Assembly: GCA_963776275.1 (NCBI GenBank)
Contig: CAVZMI010000021.1
Coordinates: forward strand, 256,001 to 320,000
Direction of reading: 5' to 3'
DNA length: 64,000 bases
Origin: Ignavibacteriota bacterium
Lineage (GTDB): Bacteria > Bacteroidota > Ignavibacteria > UBA10030 > CAVZMI01
Shown here: one piece after another, positions 55,315 to 64,000 of the stretch
Layout of the letters: every line of letters begins with the position of its first letter
How positions within the stretch are numbered: position 1 is the first letter of the stretch
Made by a program: the position numbers and the translations under genes
The notes under the pieces: generated by a model
Database searches by the model: none
What the model was told of the DNA's origin: nothing
Seen by the model: the letters and a program-made list of their open reading frames with translations, nothing else

Positions 55315-58300
55315 CTATTTCATAAGCACCATCGGCTTACTTGATCGGTGTCCCCCTGATTCCAACACTGCCAGATAAATTCCGCTGGGAAGTCTTGACG
55401 CTAGAAAATTCTCCTCATATACTCTTCCGGCTTCGGCAATTCCATTGAAAAGAACGGCAATTTCCTGTCCCAGGATGTTGAAAACCTTCAATGTTGCATA
55501 CCCTTTCTCGGCCAGTGTAAAGTCTATCGTTGTGTTGGGATTAAAAGGATTAGGATAATTATTGTAAAGAACGAACCTCTCGGGCAGTTCATTAGTAGCT
55601 ATTATATTTGAAGTTGCTCCATAAATTTCAATTTCATAGAGAGAGTATCCCCATGGCGAAGCTCGTTGTATCCCCAGCATCCGTACAAAATGTGTCTGTG
55701 CTCCGACGGATATTTTATCCGTTCCACCATCACCATTCATAAAATGTACAACATCCATCCATCCCGACATATCATCGGAAATCTGGAGATAATACTCTTT
55801 TGCGTACGTCCCCCCCCAATGTAATACAACGTTATCGATATACACCTTCGCACCGAGATCGACGATAATGAATTGCGGATCGCTATATGTGGATGACCAT
55901 TGTGTATCCATATTACCATCAACGGCATTGGCACCTTCAAGTCCGGTTCGCCTGAAAGATGATACTGTCACCGGTTTATGTAAAGCAAGATTATGCGGCG
56001 GCTCAGGATACACTGTAAATTGCGCAGAGAGAATTGTTAGTCTCCACGCATTCATCCACTGCATTATCAGGATCAACGGTTGCTTCAACCTCGTACGTAC
56101 CGATTTCAGCCAACGTCCATGTATTGACGCTTTGAGGACCATGGCTGCCGCTGATCAGAACCATTCCACATGCAGGTATCGGTCATGCGATTTCGTCTGA
56201 CCAACTTACGATCTGACCGTTAACATTGAATGTCATCTTGAATGCCTGACCTGCCGGTGTCGGTGCGCTTCCCTGATTTTTCACTGTCGCATAGAAAGCA
56301 ACTTGTTGCCCGGGTAGTGGATACGGCGGCACCATTCTTATATTCGTGATAAGTAGATCAGGTTTCCGCGGATTGTTTCGCACATCGAAGTGATCCGAGA
56401 GAGGTAGATTATCGGACGAGCCTCCGATACGTACTGTATACTGTCCTGTCTCGACCTCATACGTATCGCTTATTTCATTATAATAATATAACTCATCCGC
56501 AGTCAGTGTAAGTTCTACCGTTGTGGTCTGCCCGGGATTGATATTCACCCGTTTAAAGCCTTTAAGCTCCTTCACAGCCATCGGTACAGACGTTTCAGGT
56601 TTGCTTAAATAAAGCTGAACTACTTCATCCCCACTCCGAGCGCCTGTATTTGTTACATCCACCTCTACTGTCACCGGTTCTCCGGGTGCTACAGATGCCG
56701 GGGATATCCTCAGATTGCTGTATGAAAATGTTGTATAGCTGAGTCCGTACCCAAAAGCAAACTGCGGCACATATCCCATCTTGTCGTACCACCGGTATCC
56801 GCAGCCGTAGTCATCATTCAGGTCATCATTCCATGCAGGAAGCTGTGCGTCATTTATTGGCATTGTAACCGGCATTTTACCACCAGGATTATAATCGCCA
56901 AAGAGTACATCGGCGAGCGCATTGCCCCCTTCCTGTCCGGGATAGAACGCATAAATTAATCCTTCGATCGAATTGATACAGCGATTGAGACTGCAGACTC
57001 CGCCGCTGAAAATAGTAACGACAAGATTGGGATTGACGGCTGCGAGTGCATTAATGAGATCCTGTTGCTTGCCTGGCAGGCTTGTCGAGCCGCCAGAACG
57101 GTCAGCTCCTTCTCCTTCCTGACTCGGATCAAGTCCGCCGCAGAAAACGACAACATCCGCACTCTGTGCATAACTCACAGCAACAGCAAATCCGGTTGTA
57201 TCGGCACTATTTATATCGCATCCCTTTGTATAGAGCACCTTCTCTGCCCCGATTTTATTTTCTGTCCCTTGTCGTGGGCTGATACTATAATACGGAGTGA
57301 CATACGCACTTCCAGTCCCATCGATTTGAGCAACAGCAGCACTTGGTCCGACGAGTGCAACCTTGGTAATAGATTTGTTCAGCGGTAAGATATTATTCTG
57401 GTTCTTGAGAAGAACCAGTGACTTCTGTCCGGCTTCGAGACACAACTGTTGATGTGCCGCGCAGTTGACATCGTCAGCATTGCCCGGCGGTTGATAATCA
57501 AGCATACCGGCAAAGATTTTCGTTCGCAGCACACGACGGACAGCGTTATCGATCACTGAGTCTGGAACTGCACCGCTGCTCACGAGTCCGGGTAGATCGT
57601 TCCCATATTTATCTGAGCCCATACAAATATCGCAGCCGGCTTTGATAGCTAAATCTGAATGAACGATGGAACCCCAGTCGGAAACTACATAGAACGGAAA
57701 TCCCCATTGTGTGCGCAGAATAGAAGTCAGTAGAGTGGGATTCTCAGCACAATATTGGCCGTTAATAAGATTATAAGCATTCATCACGCACATCGCGCCG
57801 CCTTGTTGAACCGCCGTACGGAAGGCAAGCCCTGCCGGTTCGTTGAGTACACGCCGTGCCGCAATGATATTGTTTGTTGTCCGGCCATTCTCACGGTGGT
57901 TGGCATTATAATGCTTGACCGTCGCGATGCACGGTGTCGATTGGATACCTTTAACAACTGCCGTCGTGGTTCGTGCGCAGAGGTAAGGATCTTCACCTCC
58001 TGTTTCCGGACTTCGTCCGTTCCGCGGATCGCGATCGATATCGAGGCATGGTCCGAGGGCCTGGTGTTTTCCTTTACCACGGAATTCCTTCCCCATAGCC
58101 ACACCGATTTGCTGGGCGAGGTCGATATCCCACATCGAAGCCATTCCGATACCAACGGGGAAGCTTGTCGCCATTCCGTCACGGACACCATGCGGCCCAT
58201 CCGCCATGATAAAACCGGGGATTCCAAGGCGGGCGTTATTTGGTGTATTAAATGCACCTTCCTGATGGAGCTGCAGTAACTTTTCCTGCATCGGCATCTG

Positions 58301-58414
58301 GTCGAGCAGTGTGTCGATTCTTGCTTCAACCGTCTGTGCGGCGGTTTGCATAAAAGCAAGTCCGAGAAAAACTGGAATAATCAATACTCTGATTAAGGTA
58401 TAATATATATTCAT
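55315..58414 (-). CDS. GH3 beta-glucosidase with Fn3, CARDB, CBM32 and T9SS CTD (in-frame TGA at 56183-56185, frame break near 56030)
   Basis: DGPHGVR, RDPRNGR..E..GEDP, KHY, VVSDWG, FGYGLSYTTF; reading through TGA gives the rest of CARDB (ATVDPDNAVDECVETNN), then an F5/8C domain and NYPNPFNP. Confidence 0.9.
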
Positions 58415-58739: not shown

Positions 58740-58771
58740 AAAACCCACAGCGGTTTAGCTGTGGGTTTTTT
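58740..58771. terminator. Bidirectional rho-independent terminator ending the pilin-like operon
   Basis: AAAACCCACAGC-GGTTTA-GCTGTGGGTTTT perfect stem flanked by A/T tracts. Confidence 0.8.
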
Positions 58772-58813: not shown

Positions 58814-59152
58814 CTATTCAGAAACCGTGAATACGAGAGTACGATTCACGGGGGTAGTATTCTCTGAAATTTGTTGATTTTTTTTGCGGTCGCTTGATTC
58901 AATTCCTGTACTGAGATTTTCTATTGTTGAAGACACTTTACTCGTCGTTACGACATTATCGATTCCAGATTGAACGTTCATTGCAATGCCAGTTCCTGCA
59001 GGTGATGTTGTATCGAGAGATGCGGTCACTTTCGGCGCCGATATTTTTACGCTAAAAGTAATTACCTGACAAGCATGGCTTGTGGTCTGTGCATTGATTA
59101 CATCTATCATAGAGACAAGCACCATAACTCCTATCACAAATCGCCAAAACAT
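58814..59152 (-). CDS. Small exported protein, internally reduced pilin-like paralog
   Basis: Signal peptide; N-terminal QVITFSVK and C-terminal RTLVFTVSE match the termini of the neighbouring subunit (QIIVEVK, RIVTLTVTD). Confidence 0.6.
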   Translation of the reverse strand: MFWRFVIGVMVLVSMIDVINAQTTSHACQVITFSVKISAPKVTASLDTTSPAGTGIAMNVQSGIDNVVTTSKVSSTIENLSTGIESSDRKKNQQISENTTPVNRTLVFTVSE

Positions 59153-59165
59153 GGTCGTTTTCCCC

Positions 59166-59659
59166 TTAATCTGTCACTGTCAACGTTACTATTCGTGTTT
59201 CATTCTCAATTTCACCGGCACTTGCATTTGCAGCAAAAGTATAGTCGATCGTTTGATTCCTGTCGATTCCTCTTGTAACACCGGAAACAGCGGTCACAGG
59301 TGCAACTGCATCCGATATATCAACGACGCCGGCGCTGTTCCATTTCGAACTCTTGAGGTTAATCATCAATTTCGTCCCTTTTGGCATAGGATCATTAATA
59401 GAAGCGACGATTTTCATGTTATCAAGATTTGTAAGTACATTATATGTCGTGCTATTATCGTTCGATTGGGCGAATTCGGACCCTGCGGCGGGTCTTGAAT
59501 GAGGAATGAATGCGGATTCCCTGTTACATTGATTGAAGTAATCGGTTTTACCTCAACAATGATCTGCTGCTGTACGCTGGTATTATTGTGCTGAGCGTAG
59601 CAAACTCCTGCCACTAAGAAGAATAACCCCAACATCACTATCGCTCGCCGCGTTTCCAT
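59166..59659 (-). CDS. Exported all-beta fimbrial/pilin-like subunit, ~164 aa (frame break near 59485)
   Basis: ORFs 59414-59659 and 59166-59417 join via AGSEFAQSNDNSTTYNVLTNLDNMKIVAS; ends IDYTFAA...RIVTLTVTD. Confidence 0.7.
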
Positions 59660-59746
59660 TGCTTTATGCCCTCATGAAAAAAGAATCAATGATAGAAAAC
59701 AGCCTTCATTCTATATACCGCCTCAACACCATACAACGTGACAAAG

Positions 59747-59762
59747 TTCAAATAGGATGCCA
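59747..59762 (-). promoter_or_regulatory. Candidate sigma54 (-24/-12) promoter for the pilin-like genes
   Basis: Minus strand TGGCAT-CCTAT-TTGAA versus consensus TGGCAC-N5-TTGCW; palindrome TGTAG-TTT-CTACA ~110 bp upstream (59871-59883). Confidence 0.55.
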
Positions 59763-59902
59763 TCAGGATTCCGGCAAAGTTTATTGAGGGCAGCCCTGTA
59801 AACTATTTATTGATAAAGGGTTACGGGATGTGACGAGATGGTTATGTAAATAGGGAAAAAGTGGAAATGATGTAGTTTCTACAAATTGTATAAGGACAGC
59901 GC

Positions 59903-62900
59903 TTATTTCTTGCTTAGAATCATTTTTTCAATTGCCTCGGCTTCTTCACGGATTTTTAGCGAACCAACATAAACGCGGTATCGTAAACCAATTCCGGGTA
60001 CACGGACTCTTTTAAGGAATGCAGGTTTTCCTATCAATAACTTCGCCTCTCTGATACCGGCGAGTGCTCTTCTCCTCGATCTCCATGAAGACGCCTGGAC
60101 GACATAGCCGCCGCGTTTCTTATTATAACTGATAAGCGAAGGAGCCTGTGTCGGTGAAATTTGTTGAGGACGGCTTGGTTTGATTTTCTGTGTTCCTTTC
60201 TTCTCCTCGATAACTTTCTCTTCTTGAATGATGCGGATAGCGCGGTGACGTGGAAATATTTTGAATATTGCTTCCTTTCGTTCGCCAGGACGAAGCTCGA
60301 TCTCGTATGAATCCTTTTCCAAATAATGATTCTCCGGAAGCTGACCTTCGAGAAGTGTGAGTACCCACCGCCCCGGGCGGATATCCGTGAATGTCCATCG
60401 GCCCTGATTATCGCTTATGCGGCGGATTATTTCTGTTCCGTTCGAGAGTTGAAGAATAATGTCAGGCTGACCGCGGAGTTCGATAATTTCCGGGGTAAGA
60501 CTGTCTGCCTTCATTCTTTCACTGAGTCCGTAAAGAATGACAGAACCGGTAACAGAGCAGCTTCGGACTACACCAAGCGCGAATTCCGAAACTCCTCCTC
60601 CAGAGAGCAGAATTTCCATTGGCAGCGGTTTCGTTGTAACACGGCCATATCCGATACTCATCCTGTCAACCTGGAGATAATACGTTCCCGGCGGAAGACC
60701 TGGAAAACGGAAATTCCCATCATCATCTGTGAGCGCAGTCGCATCACCAATGTTCAGAAGCGCTTTCCCGACCCCCTTATTTTTCTCGACATCGACGACA
60801 CGGCCGCCGATTTCCCCCAATGATCCACTTCGACCAATCGGGATAAGAATCGGTACCGAGTACCCAGCAATAAAGGCCCGTGTCCGGCCATCGACAGCAG
60901 GCGAAACAGTACTCTGGCGACCATGGAATGAAATTATGTGTCCGAATGAAAATGTATGTTCAATGGCGAAATCAATAATTGTATATGTCTGCGTTGATGA
61001 TGAGATTGCCCTGCTTCCATAAACATTGAGAGTAAAGCGTGTCTTATCGCTTAGCTGACTCAGGAGAAACAAACTAGCTGATTGCTGTTTCTGTTCTTCG
61101 TCTGTCTCGACATTGACCTGTTTATCGTATTCGACAGTGAAATTGAGATTGTGACTATCCAGAATGCGAAAACCGGCATTCGCATAATACCGTGAGTACG
61201 GTTCGTTTTTCCCCATAAGCCTGTCTTCGACCCAGCCGATATCGGCATTAACCGAGATATTCAGCCATGAAAAATTATATCCGCTGCTGAACTGATACAT
61301 ATGATCAACCTGACTGTATTTTGAAACCGGAAGTAGATCCTCTCGTTTTGTGACCCTGTAACGAACAGAAACGAGATCGGAATAACCCAATCCAGCCTCA
61401 TAATATCGATCACGTGGAGCAATATACTGTAGAGTATCAAGATTGATATTTCGCCGTTCGTCCCTGAGGTAACCCTCAATATGGAAGAGTTTCCACGGGT
61501 AGAAAGTAATGCTGGCAGCAGTCGATCGTATATCCCGGTAATATCCGCTGTAAAGTGGACCCGCATTAATATAACGGAGATCCATATTCACAAATGACGA
61601 TTGGACATTGAATTGTCCTGCAAATGCATGATCGTTCCCCTGGGGATTTGAGCTTAATCCATATTCCACATCTACGCCTGTACTTTGGAACGGCTGGTAC
61701 AATGTCCGGAAGGAATAGATTGTGCTTTTCACCGATTCTTTTTTCTGCAGCGTATTGATGCTTATATTCAAATTATTCAGAATCCGAGCTCCGAGAAAGC
61801 CTCCGTATTGTTCAAGAGCAGGTGAATAGAATCGGGTTTTGTTATAGAATCCTCCCACCGTGATCGGTGAAATAACAATTCTTCCACCTCCTCCAAATCC
61901 ATATCTCGAAAATTCCGTCAATTGCGTGAGTGTATAAATTTGATCGCCGGCATAGAGATCAAGCTTTTCGCTCTTATAGCCGGCTCTATATTCATCCCGA
62001 TAACCAAGGACGGATTGCTCAATCGTCTGTGGAGTGCGAATAAGCAAACTGAGGATATCTTTGCCTCCATCAGAAAGGGGTGCTGAGCTTGTCAATTCAA
62101 ATTGAGTCCGATATGCCTCATCGCTCCCTGTCGGATGGATAGTAATCAACAGCGGATACCGATATATCGTGCTGCTCACATAATCAATTCTGGGTATGAT
62201 ATCCGAGACTGCCGAAGCGTGTGCAACTATAGTCGTATCAGTAACACTCGATGCATATAATTCAAGAAGGGCACGCGTCTTTACAGAAATTGAATGGCTT
62301 GTTGGGGCAATAGCTTTAATGTGACGGGTCTCGTTCGGCTTTAGTCGTATCAACGTACTGTCAACGAAGGCCGAATCGACACCGACTACTTTCGTGTGCA
62401 ATCGTATCCGGGTCAGCTCATTCCCTTTATTCACCAGGGTGAATTGCGTAATCAAGGTGTCGCCGGCGATAACATATCGCGATGCGTCTGTGAATTGAAG
62501 TTCGAGACTCCGTATAGGAAGTATTGTAATTGGAACCGACGCTTCGACTCCGAGATAGATGGCAGTCAATGATTTCAACCGATATCGGAAAGGATATTGA
62601 CCGGCTGCCGCTTCCAGCGGGATCGAGAAACTCACCAGCAGAATATCTCTCTGCATCGGCGCGAGTTCAACTCTAGTTCTTCGCATTAACGCATGCCAGC
62701 CAGCCGGGAGAAATGCTTCACCCTCGAGACGTTGTGATTGCGAAGTATTGTTTAAAATTAAAAAGCTTACAGTAATGACTTTTCCCGGTGTTGTCTCGAT
62801 CGGTGCCGTGTTCGAAGGTTGAATGATAATACCTTGCGCCCAACATAAAGTCGGCACCGCTACGGAAATCATCACCAACGTCATAATATAAAAAATCCGG

Positions 62901-62941
62901 CTTCTGTGAACCGGATAAAATATGCTCTGTAATCTTTCCAC
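59903..62941 (-). CDS. Large outer-membrane usher-like protein: N-terminal Ig domains, beta-barrel-like core, two prealbumin-like domains, C-terminal SPOR domain
   Basis: Signal peptide; two NEW3/Ig-like repeats; ~450 aa of amphipathic beta-strands; TDDDGNFRFPGLPPGTY and SDNQGRWTFTDIRPGRW; YVVQASSW...YRVYVG....EEA (SPOR). Confidence 0.65.
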   Translation of the reverse strand: MERLQSIFYPVHRSRIFYIMTLVMISVAVPTLCWAQGIIIQPSNTAPIETTPGKVITVSFLILNNTSQSQRLEGEAFLPAGWHALMRRTRVELAPMQRDILLVSFSIPLEAAAGQYPFRYRLKSLTAIYLGVEASVPITILPIRSLELQFTDASRYVIAGDTLITQFTLVNKGNELTRIRLHTKVVGVDSAFVDSTLIRLKPNETRHIKAIAPTSHSISVKTRALLELYASSVTDTTIVAHASAVSDIIPRIDYVSSTIYRYPLLITIHPTGSDEAYRTQFELTSSAPLSDGGKDILSLLIRTPQTIEQSVLGYRDEYRAGYKSEKLDLYAGDQIYTLTQLTEFSRYGFGGGGRIVISPITVGGFYNKTRFYSPALEQYGGFLGARILNNLNISINTLQKKESVKSTIYSFRTLYQPFQSTGVDVEYGLSSNPQGNDHAFAGQFNVQSSFVNMDLRYINAGPLYSGYYRDIRSTAASITFYPWKLFHIEGYLRDERRNINLDTLQYIAPRDRYYEAGLGYSDLVSVRYRVTKREDLLPVSKYSQVDHMYQFSSGYNFSWLNISVNADIGWVEDRLMGKNEPYSRYYANAGFRILDSHNLNFTVEYDKQVNVETDEEQKQQSASLFLLSQLSDKTRFTLNVYGSRAISSSTQTYTIIDFAIEHTFSFGHIISFHGRQSTVSPAVDGRTRAFIAGYSVPILIPIGRSGSLGEIGGRVVDVEKNKGVGKALLNIGDATALTDDDGNFRFPGLPPGTYYLQVDRMSIGYGRVTTKPLPMEILLSGGGVSEFALGVVRSCSVTGSVILYGLSERMKADSLTPEIIELRGQPDIILQLSNGTEIIRRISDNQGRWTFTDIRPGRWVLTLLEGQLPENHYLEKDSYEIELRPGERKEAIFKIFPRHRAIRIIQEEKVIEEKKGTQKIKPSRPQQISPTQAPSLISYNKKRGGYVVQASSWRSRRRALAGIREAKLLIGKPAFLKRVRVPGIGLRYRVYVGSLKIREEAEAIEKMILSKK

Positions 62942-62950
62942 TTTGTTAGT

Positions 62951-63772
62951 TTAGAACTTCAATGTATGCTGGGCTCCAAAGATATCAGCTCCACCGCCGT
63001 CGACAACAACCATCGCCTTATATGTACCTGACGGGATTTTGCTGAGATCAATCATTTGCCGCACCGATGTACCGGGATACATCCGGTATTTTGTCCCCAA
63101 AAATTTCCCGATAGACATTCCTTGTGCATCAAACAATTCGACATACATATCGGGCCGGAATCCGATATCACCGATGTTCTCAATATCAACCTGGAGATAA
63201 CGCTCACCCGGTTTAGGCGAGACAATTTTCGTTTCAAGAAATTTTATATCTTTTACACCCGTCTGCGCAATATGGGTGGCAATTTGGATCCCATATCTGA
63301 TCGTCTGCCGGATCCCCATTTGTGTCTTTCGTGGATCTACCGGAGCCGAAGATTCACCCGAGCCTTTCGGGATCGCTTCGACCATTATCATGCTCCAGTA
63401 TGTTCCGATTAGTTTTTTCGTCTCACTGTTTTGAGGAACCATGAGGGTATAACTGACCGACATTGTTCTCTGCGGTGGTACTGTCACATACGATGGACTG
63501 AATGTGATCCATTTTGCATTCGAGCGGGCTTGCAAGCCGGGTTCACCATAATTATTGGTTCCATCATACCGGAAGGTGTAATCGGTCTGATAAATTTTTG
63601 CTTCCTGCGGTTCATTACTGTCATTCTTGATAAGTATTGAACCTTCATATTTCGCACCCGGTTGGGCTTCACGGTCATGACTGAGATCGCCGATGATGGA
63701 AATTTGTGCGACGCAGATTTGAATTACAAGGATGTAAAGCAATAAAAATACGAAAATGATTCGTTTTCTCAT
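62951..63772 (-). CDS. Periplasmic two-Ig-domain protein, PapD/DUF916-like chaperone candidate
   Basis: Signal peptide; ILIKNDSNEPQEAKIYQTDY, RSNAKWITFSP, GTYWSMIMVE, IENIGD, RMYPGTS, GTYKAMVVVDGG. Confidence 0.65.
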   Translation of the reverse strand: MRKRIIFVFLLLYILVIQICVAQISIIGDLSHDREAQPGAKYEGSILIKNDSNEPQEAKIYQTDYTFRYDGTNNYGEPGLQARSNAKWITFSPSYVTVPPQRTMSVSYTLMVPQNSETKKLIGTYWSMIMVEAIPKGSGESSAPVDPRKTQMGIRQTIRYGIQIATHIAQTGVKDIKFLETKIVSPKPGERYLQVDIENIGDIGFRPDMYVELFDAQGMSIGKFLGTKYRMYPGTSVRQMIDLSKIPSGTYKAMVVVDGGGADIFGAQHTLKF

Positions 63773-63783
63773 ACGACATCCTT

Positions 63784-64000
63784 CTAAGGTGTTAGTGTAT
63801 ATGTAATCCGGTGACGATCATTCCCAAGCTCGATGCTATTTCCCTTGCTGTATAAAGTCGAGGCAGTGTAATTGATCGTTGCTGTAGCGTTCGTACCACT
63901 CCTTGTTATACCTGTGATAAAATCATGAGCGTTTGTATCGGTAAAAGTGACTGTGCCTGCCGCAACGCCTCTAGTGACATTCGACGCATATACTGATAGA
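63784..64000 (-). CDS. C-terminal part of another pilin-like subunit (runs off the window end)
   Basis: Own translation: LSVYASNVTRGVAAGTVTFTDTNAHDFITGITRSGTNATATINYTAST...DRHRITYTLTP*, aligning with the 59166-59659 C-terminus (SAGVVDISD..AVSGVTRG..TIDYTFAA..RIVTLTVTD). Confidence 0.7.
   Translation of the reverse strand, partial: LSVYASNVTRGVAAGTVTFTDTNAHDFITGITRSGTNATATINYTASTLYSKGNSIELGNDRHRITYTLTP

Follow-up and report, generated by a model that had tools for sequence, protein, structure and literature searches.

A predicted chaperone-usher-like pilus operon in an Ignavibacteriota genome, with parts related to the Gram-positive WxL pilus

Gene Organization of the Locus

The stretch of DNA considered here (the window) consists of 64,000 nucleotides from an Ignavibacteriota bacterium and corresponds to positions 256001-320000 of contig CAVZMI010000021.1 in assembly GCA_963776275.1, a genome that is 96.4% complete. 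Close to its right end, on the minus strand, lies an operon that encodes several small pilin-like paralogs (pA to pF), a protein of 273 aa (the chaperone) and a protein of 1012 aa (the large protein). From comparison of sequences and from predicted structures, this operon probably (at about 0.7) encodes a chaperone-usher-like pilus of a diderm bacterium, parts of which are related to the Gram-positive WxL (Elr) pilus. The order is pA, pB, pC, pD, chaperone, large protein, pE, pF and terminator. The operon extends beyond the end of the window, and the rest of pD, three further paralogs, a sigma-54-type promoter and a divergent regulator pair are found upstream. These outside parts are numbered as the contig coordinate minus 256000. 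The features are as follows.

About 58740-58769, minus strand: terminator hairpin with a 12-bp stem, a 6-nt loop and a U tract, read from the sequence and then folded
58814-59152, minus strand: pF, a short pilin-like paralog of 112 aa, which has a signal peptide, an alternating strand at the N-terminus and LVFTVSE as its C-terminal strand
59166-59659, minus strand: pE, a pilin gene similar to pA that is interrupted near 59480 by a frame shift of one base; its halves are open reading frames (ORFs) of 81 aa (59414-59659) and 83 aa (59166-59417), the latter with the C-terminal strand VTLTVTD
59903-62941, minus strand: predicted usher-like outer-membrane protein, an ORF of 1012 aa with a likely start at M20 that leaves 993 aa (AlphaFold2, Foldseek, VIA)
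62951-63772, minus strand: two-immunoglobulin (Ig) chaperone of 273 aa with a signal peptide, predicted to be soluble and periplasmic (profile search, AlphaFold2, Foldseek, VIA)
63784-64000 in the window and on to 64245 beyond it, minus strand: pD, a pilin-like paralog of 153 aa, whose C-terminal 71 aa, ending in ITYTLTP, are inside the window
64254-64757, beyond the window, minus strand: pC, a pilin-like paralog of 167 aa
64813-65343, beyond the window, minus strand: pB, a pilin-like paralog of 176 aa
65410-65943, beyond the window, minus strand: pA, an ORF of 177 aa with a likely start at M13, the first gene and the best conserved
65981-65995, beyond the window, minus strand: sigma-54-type -24/-12 element, TGGCAC-N5-TTGA
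66283-67089, beyond the window, plus strand: histidine kinase with HisKA and HATPase_c domains (Pfam)
67257-68636, beyond the window, plus strand: NtrC-type sigma-54 activator with Response_reg, Sigma54_activat (1e-68) and HTH_8 domains (Pfam)

A first-pass annotation of the window had described a co-oriented operon of five genes, made up of a partial pilin-like gene, the genes for the 273 aa and 1012 aa proteins and two further small genes, followed by a strong terminator. All of these were found on the minus strand, and the inventory had to be corrected, since pE is frameshifted, pD is a gene of 153 aa, and pC, pB and pA lie upstream beyond the window. The hairpin that closes the operon is an intrinsic terminator. 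Its minimum free energy is -26.4 kcal/mol for 86 nt (z -3.6), and only one of 200 shuffled sequences was equally stable; it is missing from the list given by a scan for consensus terminators.

The break in pE was compared with other public sequencing runs and with relatives. The N-terminal ORF holds the signal peptide and the first strands; the C-terminal one has 41% identity to the corresponding half of pA. In contigs of two other public runs (X1 and X2), a G run of the coding strand has a single additional base, located behind 59480. The X1 contig covers the whole compared stretch, with 53 differences in 1,101 bases, and that of X2 covers 150 bases; X3 and X4 cover small parts only. In the related locus L072 the pE orthologue is unbroken and 164 aa long, with 92% and 98% identity to the two halves. 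Because other runs carry the extra base and this orthologue is intact, the break is either an assembly error or a strain-specific slip in the homopolymer, and the gene is kept in relatives.

The Chaperone is a Remote Homologue of WxL-Interacting Proteins

In a Pfam scan of the 273 aa protein no family exceeds its threshold. The match to WxLIP_PGBD, one of the families of WxL-interacting proteins (WxLIPs), reaches 15.6 bits against a cut-off of 27.3, and WxLIP_HBD is not matched. The protein has 489 homologues at E <= 1e-3 (90% clusters); the 120 matches listed are all at least 58% identical, and every name given by the source among these is "hypothetical protein". When clustered at 50% identity, representatives of the family number 1,647 at E <= 1e-3, 919 at 1e-10 and 434 at 1e-30. 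A profile made from an alignment of 72 homologues (A2) finds one kind of solved protein in the PDB, the WxLIP of Enterococcus faecium (9i25_C, E 1.2e-6; 9i1y, E 1e-6), and the match spans both domains, from profile position 38 to 265 of 269. No PapD-family chain was matched in the same search at E <= 10. Among the 72 members, Pfam matches at E < 0.01 are seen to WxLIP_PGBD in 13 and to WxLIP_HBD in four. One distant member from the same phylum passes the WxLIP_PGBD cut-off (28.4 against 27.3 bits), and it also has a faint match to PapD_N (E 0.024).

The structural comparison gives a similar order. The AlphaFold2 model (mean predicted local distance difference test score, pLDDT, 95.4; predicted TM-score, pTM, 0.87) consists of the signal helix and two beta-sandwich domains. 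It ends in a beta-strand at residues 264-272, and the signal peptide is its sole helix, so that a C-terminal membrane helix is missing. Foldseek places 9i25_C at the top (E 1e-12), followed by CfaA, YadV, CsuC, Caf1M, CupB2, FimC, EcpB and PapD. In VIA-align the two WxLIP structures score Z 16.8 (227 residues aligned) and 15.9, and CfaA, YadV, FimC, CsuC, Caf1M and PapD range from Z 12.6 to 10.4, each across both domains; the best classical chaperone thus trails WxLIP by 4 Z units. The pilus-chaperone fold proposed in the first-pass annotation for the two-Ig protein is borne out by both programs. As a remote homologue of WxLIP/ElrE, the 273 aa protein is closer to it than to PapD.

A Predicted Outer-Membrane Barrel with Usher-Like Domain Order

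The large protein has Pfam matches to CarboxypepD_reg (8e-11) and SPOR (6e-4) and a weak match to an Ig domain of the NEW3 type. In Atlas it stands among proteins of about 900 aa with the same domains from Bacteroidota, Synergistota and Gemmatimonadota. A word-indexed search for homologues gave only seven proteins, and the alignment was therefore drawn from genome loci, with 60 rows. Its profile finds no barrel protein by sequence in the PDB, only matches to the C-terminal beta-sandwich or N-terminal Ig parts (NOMO2, SdrD and a sialidase).

The AlphaFold2 model has a mean pLDDT of 88.5, which rises to 94-98 over residues 260-705. From the N-terminus it is laid out as a signal peptide, two Ig-like domains (about 38-250), a beta-barrel of 26 strands (259-704), beta-sandwiches at 709-806 and 819-897, a disordered linker and the SPOR domain (937-1011). 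In Foldseek, ranks 1-9 are all chains of the usher FimD, with E values from 1e-13 to 5e-11 over 766-939 columns; PapC follows at ranks 13, 15 and 31, and then come MtrB, LptD, BtuB and AlgE. When the barrel was compared by VIA, Z was 22.2 for MtrB (411 residues aligned), 17.5 for PapC and 17.3 for the FimD pore. By prediction, the large protein is an outer-membrane barrel flanked by periplasmic beta-sandwich domains in an usher-like order, and a SPOR domain would fit a C-terminus on the periplasmic side. A barrel had been expected for this protein from the sequence of the window, together with the lack of a recognizable PapC/FimD signature. The former is predicted by the model; as to the latter, the Usher and PapD_N families of Pfam have no match in the genome at E <= 1.

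Pilin-Like Proteins and their Possible Links to Known Fibrils

Each of pA to pF has a signal peptide, an alternating strand just after it and an alternating strand at the C-terminus. The shared C-terminal hydrophobic strand had been pointed out for the small proteins of the window, and it recurs in 224 of 246 pilin-like ORFs of related loci; the N-terminal strand, first noticed in pE and pF, is present in pA to pD as well. The small proteins are 18-41% identical to pA in alignment, in agreement with the paralogy suggested for them. The highly conserved pA family comprises 257 proteins at E <= 1e-3, and no Pfam domain is present in any of the 120 listed. pA is the presumed major subunit. Short last genes of 111-152 aa that match pilin profiles are also found in relatives such as L072, L073, L074, L075, L076, L086 and L118, and pF may serve as a terminator, an anchor or a tip subunit.

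A lead to the WxL proteins comes from Atlas, in which the nearest named cluster of the pA family (score 0.90) has the WxL domain PF13731 in 20% of its members; this is taken as a lead only. Another link is to the fibrils TLP-1a/b, which are 8 nm wide and were imaged from pond water by cryo-electron microscopy (cryo-EM; CryoSeek, PMC11494351). As described in the parts of that paper used here, the N-terminal strand of a protomer makes another protomer's Ig-like domain complete by entering a cleft formed by beta2a, beta2b and beta7 (PMC11494351). A profile of pilin-like proteins from distant loci of the same phylum (A7), which aligns with the pA family in hhalign (95.9%, E 5e-9, 143 columns), matches TLP-2 (9ikk, E 2.8e-5) and TLP-1 (9ikj, E 1.5e-4) in the PDB over the N-terminal 63-80 residues only. 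Judged from these profiles, the link of the pilins to TLP is a weak one.

The family DUF4402 (PF14352) was considered for the pilins. It is matched by five of 128 pilin-like proteins, all from the distant loci L045 and L066, where two of four and two of three small paralogs scanned carry it. These two loci, together with L046-L050 and L067-L070, encode the most distant homologues of the chaperone (E 1e-13 to 1e-22), which come after four small paralogs and before a protein of 956-1491 aa. DUF4402 may supply the subunits of a sister system; no publication that mentions the family was found in the literature searched. Its assignment to the pilins of the window was rejected: in hhalign, the alignment of the pA family and other pilins with it covers mostly the signal peptide and the first strand or strands, and DUF4402 has no match in the genome at E <= 1. 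A profile of the DUF4402 type (A6) gave one chance-level row against the PDB (E 0.081). TasA and the archaeal bundling pili were likewise set aside, with only weak hints from DUF7283 (E 0.084) and DUF7137 (24.1 bits, cut-off 27).

In four distant loci of the same phylum (L041:13421-14857, L043:5545-6981, L061 and L064), the usher-like gene is followed by a protein of about 478 aa that has no Pfam family and bears an alternating strand of this kind at its C-terminus. It is a candidate tip adhesin, and it has no counterpart in the operon of the window.

A Predicted Complex of Chaperone and Pilin

The complex was modeled from the mature chaperone (residues 23-273, alignment A2) and mature pA (residues 36-177, alignment A3). 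The interface score ipSAE was 0.84, 0.85 and 0.83 for the pair, and 0.00 for the best of three controls. The mark for this score is passed by 116 of 157 solved complexes and two of 215 mismatched pairs, counts that are rough because our own alignments were used. The runs share at least 85% of their contacts, and the pLDDT of the partners is at least 88.

In this model, residues 154-161 of the chaperone pair in register with residues 169-175 of the pilin, and hence the chaperone strand and the pilin's C-terminal strand are parallel. The predicted donor strand of the chaperone comprises residues 150-163, and in the profile match this segment aligns with the hairpin strand of WxLIP. Pilin residues 47-54 and 56-63 line the other wall of the site, so that the chaperone strand lies between them and residues 166-177. 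The first eleven mature residues of the pilin (36-46), which form the conserved N-terminal strand, are outside the modeled site. Thus, in the predicted model, the chaperone complements the pilin parallel to its C-terminal strand, as in the WxL system. The acceptor groove postulated in the first-pass annotation agrees with this placement of the chaperone strand, which is what an open groove predicts. The geometry of the TLP cleft matches the site of the chaperone strand in the model. The complex model is a sign of likeness, not of binding.

Conservation of Gene Order and Distribution

Among genomes sampled from the phylum, the chaperone profile was found in 77 of 401, or 40 of 180 genera. In 36 loci of the same phylum, the chaperone is flanked by small secreted proteins that bear the C-terminal strand, and in 33 of these an ORF of at least 914 aa comes after the chaperone (before it in one locus). 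The exceptions are L036 with a solitary chaperone, L040 with a neighbor of 728 aa, and L060 with broken genes. By iterated profile search, 16 of the 33 large neighbors are homologues of the large protein, and two loci outside the 36 were also matched.

A wider scan of species-representative genomes gave 492 stretches that encode relatives, of which the best 80 were analyzed. The large protein is directly 3' of the chaperone in all 62 loci with at least 3 kb downstream, and a pilin-like gene is directly 5' of it in 71 of the 73 loci with at least 700 nt upstream. The co-occurrence of the genes, on which the proposal of a pilus operon partly depended, is strongly kept. By label, 31 of the 80 loci are of the Ignavibacteria type, 21 are from other Bacteroidota including Rhodothermales, nine are of the Deltaproteobacteria or Desulfobacterota type, and six are from Planctomycetota; Bacteriovoracaceae and Gemmatimonadota have two each, Verrucomicrobiota and Ca. 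Thiodiazotropha one each, and seven are unclassified or odd, including one Synechococcus and one Clostridia. These last two (L111, Synechococcus sp.; L129, Clostridia) have the full gene set on their contigs, which are probably mis-binned and give no evidence of real hosts. One locus, L121, bears the label Ignavibacterium album, and isolates of the same phylum with complete genomes are the sources of L039-L043.

The chaperone is also found in another setting. In L036 (9588-10586, E 3.5e-87) and L037 (9718-10620), a close homologue stands beside a sigma-54 activator in genomes of the same phylum, with bacteriochlorophyll-type genes nearby. It is solitary there, and no pilin-like or large barrel gene is present within about 9 kb.

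Regulation

The sigma-54-type element upstream of pA is also frequent in relatives. TGGCAY-N5-TTGN occurs within -250 to +150 of 33 of 60 pA-type genes, against a background of 72 matches over 865,078 nt, which amounts to 0.033 for a window of 400 nt. The strict motif with TTGC is rarer and was seen in 10 of 57 loci. The genome contains rpoN, and a pair of kinase and sigma-54 activator stands beside the operon in L032 and L033 as well.

Neighboring Genes in the Window

On the other side of the terminator, two ORFs lie on the minus strand at 55315-58414. The first, of 743 aa, encodes a beta-glucosidase of glycoside hydrolase family 3 that ends in a partial CARDB domain. About 40 nt after it there is an ORF of 275 aa with an F5/8 type C domain and a sorting tail of the type IX secretion system, with no evident signal peptide of its own. 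Together they may represent a single secreted enzyme that a frame change has divided.

Proposed Assembly Pathway and Alternative Explanations

Taken as a pilus system, the operon would most likely work as follows. Transcription would start at the sigma-54 promoter under the control of the adjacent two-component system. The subunits pA to pF would be exported by Sec with an open groove, and the soluble chaperone would cap each of them in the periplasm, with its strand 150-163 placed in parallel with that subunit's C-terminal strand (donor-strand complementation, as modeled). The complexes would then be handed to the outer-membrane protein of 1012 aa, in which the barrel of 26 strands would be the secretion pore, the periplasmic Ig and beta-sandwich domains would be docking sites, and the SPOR domain would tie the protein to peptidoglycan. 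At this pore, the next subunit would displace the strand of the chaperone with its own free N-terminal strand (donor-strand exchange), and the fibre would grow outward. pA would be the major subunit, and pB to pF would be minor, adaptor, tip or terminator subunits. The homology and fold of the chaperone, the fold and domain order of the barrel protein, the interface of chaperone and pilin, the gene order and the promoter motif are supported by prediction or comparison; polymerization, passage through the barrel and the roles of individual subunits are what we infer from them. The divergent chaperone-usher-like fibre system that the first-pass annotation had put forward is thereby supported, and its lineage is refined, as the chaperone is closest to WxLIP/ElrE and not to PapD. 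No published description of such a diderm system was found in the literature searched.

Several points weigh against this proposal, which as a whole is built on prediction and comparison. The global TM-scores of the large protein to ushers are low (0.24-0.38), and the best VIA match of the barrel is MtrB and no usher. The barrel of a classical usher has 24 strands plus a plug; that of the large protein has 26 strands and no plug-sized insertion, its longest connection being 13 residues, a structure that does not account for gating. As complexes of chaperone and subunit are already solved for Fim, Caf, Csu and 9i25, the pass of the complex model may partly reflect likeness to, or memory of, solved structures. 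We infer the incomplete Ig fold and donor-strand exchange, as their basis is the complex model and the relatives only. The pilins belong to no family: scans of the small proteins of the window against Pfam and NCBIfam gave chance-level matches only, the WxL domain (PF13731) has no match in the genome at E <= 1 and none in the pilin scans, and neither pA alone nor the pA profile found anything meaningful among the PDB sequences. The TLP link comes from A7 only, since the pA profile, a broad profile (A5) and a single member of A7 give no TLP match. Upstream of pA, the strict -12 element TTGC is replaced by TTGA. Finally, the taxon labels of the loci are titles of records of metagenome-assembled genomes, some of which are probably mis-binned.

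Some of these points can be turned into other explanations. The small proteins may form no polymer at all, and may be exported or displayed as monomers or as a surface coat, or belong to a sheath-type outer-membrane complex of the MtrB kind. The VIA match of the barrel to MtrB (Z 22.2 over 411 residues) agrees with this, and so many paralogs could be alternative surface proteins. However, the conserved alternating strand at the N-terminus lies outside the chaperone interface, the C-terminal strand is conserved in 224 of 246 ORFs, a homologue of the chaperone was shown to prime polymerization, and there is the profile link to the cryo-EM fibrils; neither cytochromes nor any other Pfam family were found for the small proteins. 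We consider this explanation unlikely. A porin-cytochrome conduit in particular was rejected, as no cytochrome family is present among the operon proteins. It is also conceivable that the operon is a very divergent member of the classical chaperone-usher systems (the PapD/PapC lineage) and that the likeness to WxLIP reflects nothing but a shared two-Ig chaperone fold. Below WxLIP, the structural hits are a run of classical chaperones with both domains covered; over its full length the large protein is matched best by FimD and PapC in Foldseek, and one distant member of the chaperone family has the faint match to PapD_N. Against this, the profile that reaches WxLIP at E 1e-6 finds no PapD-family chain even at E <= 10, the gap of 4 Z units separates WxLIP from the best classical chaperone, PapD_N and Usher are without a match in the genome at E <= 1, and the barrel departs from that of ushers in its strand number and in having no plug. 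Such a placement within the classical lineage is quite unlikely.

The two-Ig protein could also be an adaptor that binds the cell wall or a ligand and holds the small proteins at peptidoglycan, rather than an assembly chaperone. A model of WxLIP from 2023 proposed binding to peptidoglycan and to the host (PMC10599100, from the part of the article drawn on here), and the adjacent large protein does carry a SPOR domain. That static model is, by the account in the portion of the 2026 preprint we rely on, revised by cryo-EM and reconstitution (10.64898/2026.10.17.759780). Moreover, the protein of the present operon lacks a membrane anchor and would be unattached in the periplasm, and its modeled interface is one of strand complementation. 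The adaptor role thus appears very unlikely, and the chaperone-usher-like pilus is the preferred reading.

Comparison with Known Systems

Pili assembled by donor strands have so far been treated in research as two separate worlds, the proteobacterial chaperone-usher systems and, since October 2026, the Gram-positive WxL system. If the proposed pilus exists, a soluble chaperone of the WxLIP type together with an usher-like outer-membrane pore would join both worlds. It would also mean that Ignavibacteria, like numerous further diderms of the environment, have an unrecognized adhesive fibre. Ushers could be compared with a novel pore architecture, and the cryo-EM fibrils of TLP, to which no organism has been assigned, would have a testable origin.

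Within the Bacteroidota, the known pili are those of type V (FimA/Mfa), whose pilins are lipoproteins that are processed by a protease and assembled by strand exchange, with no chaperone or usher. They have in common with the present system the host phylum and, as proposed here, assembly by strand exchange. Type V was rejected as an identification, because pA to pD have no cysteine in the cleavage region of the signal peptide and no FimA-type Pfam match is found in the pilins.

In TLP fibrils (PDB 9ikj and 9ikk), the cleft that receives the donor strand is bounded by beta2a/2b and the last strand, which is similar to the modeled site of the chaperone strand in pA. The authors name neither a source organism nor assembly genes in the parts of the paper considered here, and their best fold match is a protein of Flavobacteriales, which belong to the same phylum as the present source (PMC11494351). 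In contrast, TLP protomers have about 236 aa and mature pA about 140 aa, and the profile match is N-terminal only and absent for the pilin family of the window. The Pam pili of the Candidate Phyla Radiation (CPR) have Ig-like pilins linked through donor-strand exchange, and their operons encode putative chaperones similar to parts of chaperone-usher systems; in the sections of the article used they are reported as exclusive to CPR, whose members are monoderm-like hosts (PMC13278184). The likeness to them is one of description only, in the Ig-like pilins, donor-strand exchange and putative chaperones, and the hosts differ.

With the classical, alternate and archaic chaperone-usher systems (Fim, Pap, CFA/I, Caf and Csu), the likeness is much broader. 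It includes the two-Ig chaperone fold (Z 10-13) with parallel strand complementation, and the predicted layout of the outer-membrane protein, with periplasmic N-terminal domains, a large barrel and two C-terminal beta-sandwiches, for which FimD is the top Foldseek match. The gene order of major subunit, chaperone, pore and minor subunits is also common to both. On the other hand, the operon has no signature of PapD_N (PF00345/PF02753), Usher (PF00577) or the fimbrial Pfam families, and its subunits are in no known family. Its large protein combines a barrel of 26 strands, without a plug-sized insertion, with two N-terminal Ig domains and a C-terminal SPOR domain.

The Elr/WxL pilus of Enterococcus faecalis and of the Bacillota clusters has a two-domain chaperone that is homologous by profile, and this is also the best structural match. 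According to the parts of the preprint drawn on here, strand 141-152 of ElrE complements WxL pilins in parallel orientation to their C-terminal strand, and ElrD then polymerizes through N-terminal donor-strand exchange (bioRxiv 10.64898/2026.10.17.759780). The model of the present complex has its chaperone strand in the equivalent position and in the same parallel orientation. Both systems have several small paralogous subunits that bear an N-terminal strand, and both have an operon core of chaperone and pilins. The differences are that the present chaperone is predicted to be soluble, whereas WxLIPs are mostly tethered to the membrane (96.7% have a C-terminal membrane helix in the data of the preprint as cited here; 10.64898/2026.10.17.759780), and that the subunits have no WxL Pfam domain and follow no logic of LPxTG anchor or sortase. 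Furthermore, a large outer-membrane barrel protein is always present here, and the hosts are labelled as diderm phyla. In the portion of the preprint used, the WxL system is said to be confined to Bacillota, from a screen of 4,698 genera at Pfam gathering thresholds, and its criterion is a chaperone with both PF06030 and PF11797 above the Pfam cut-offs (10.64898/2026.10.17.759780). The present chaperone is below the gathering thresholds of that screen, and the 273 aa protein does not have the two domains above their cut-offs.

From these comparisons, a broader scheme can be drawn tentatively, as a possibility that we place somewhat short of even. The operon and its relatives would represent a third and ancient chaperone-usher lineage, spread over many diderm phyla and equipped there with a 26-strand pore of its own, that shares a common ancestry with the WxL chaperone. 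The WxL system would then be its monoderm form without an usher, and the same lineage may be the source and the assembly apparatus of fibrils of the TLP type.

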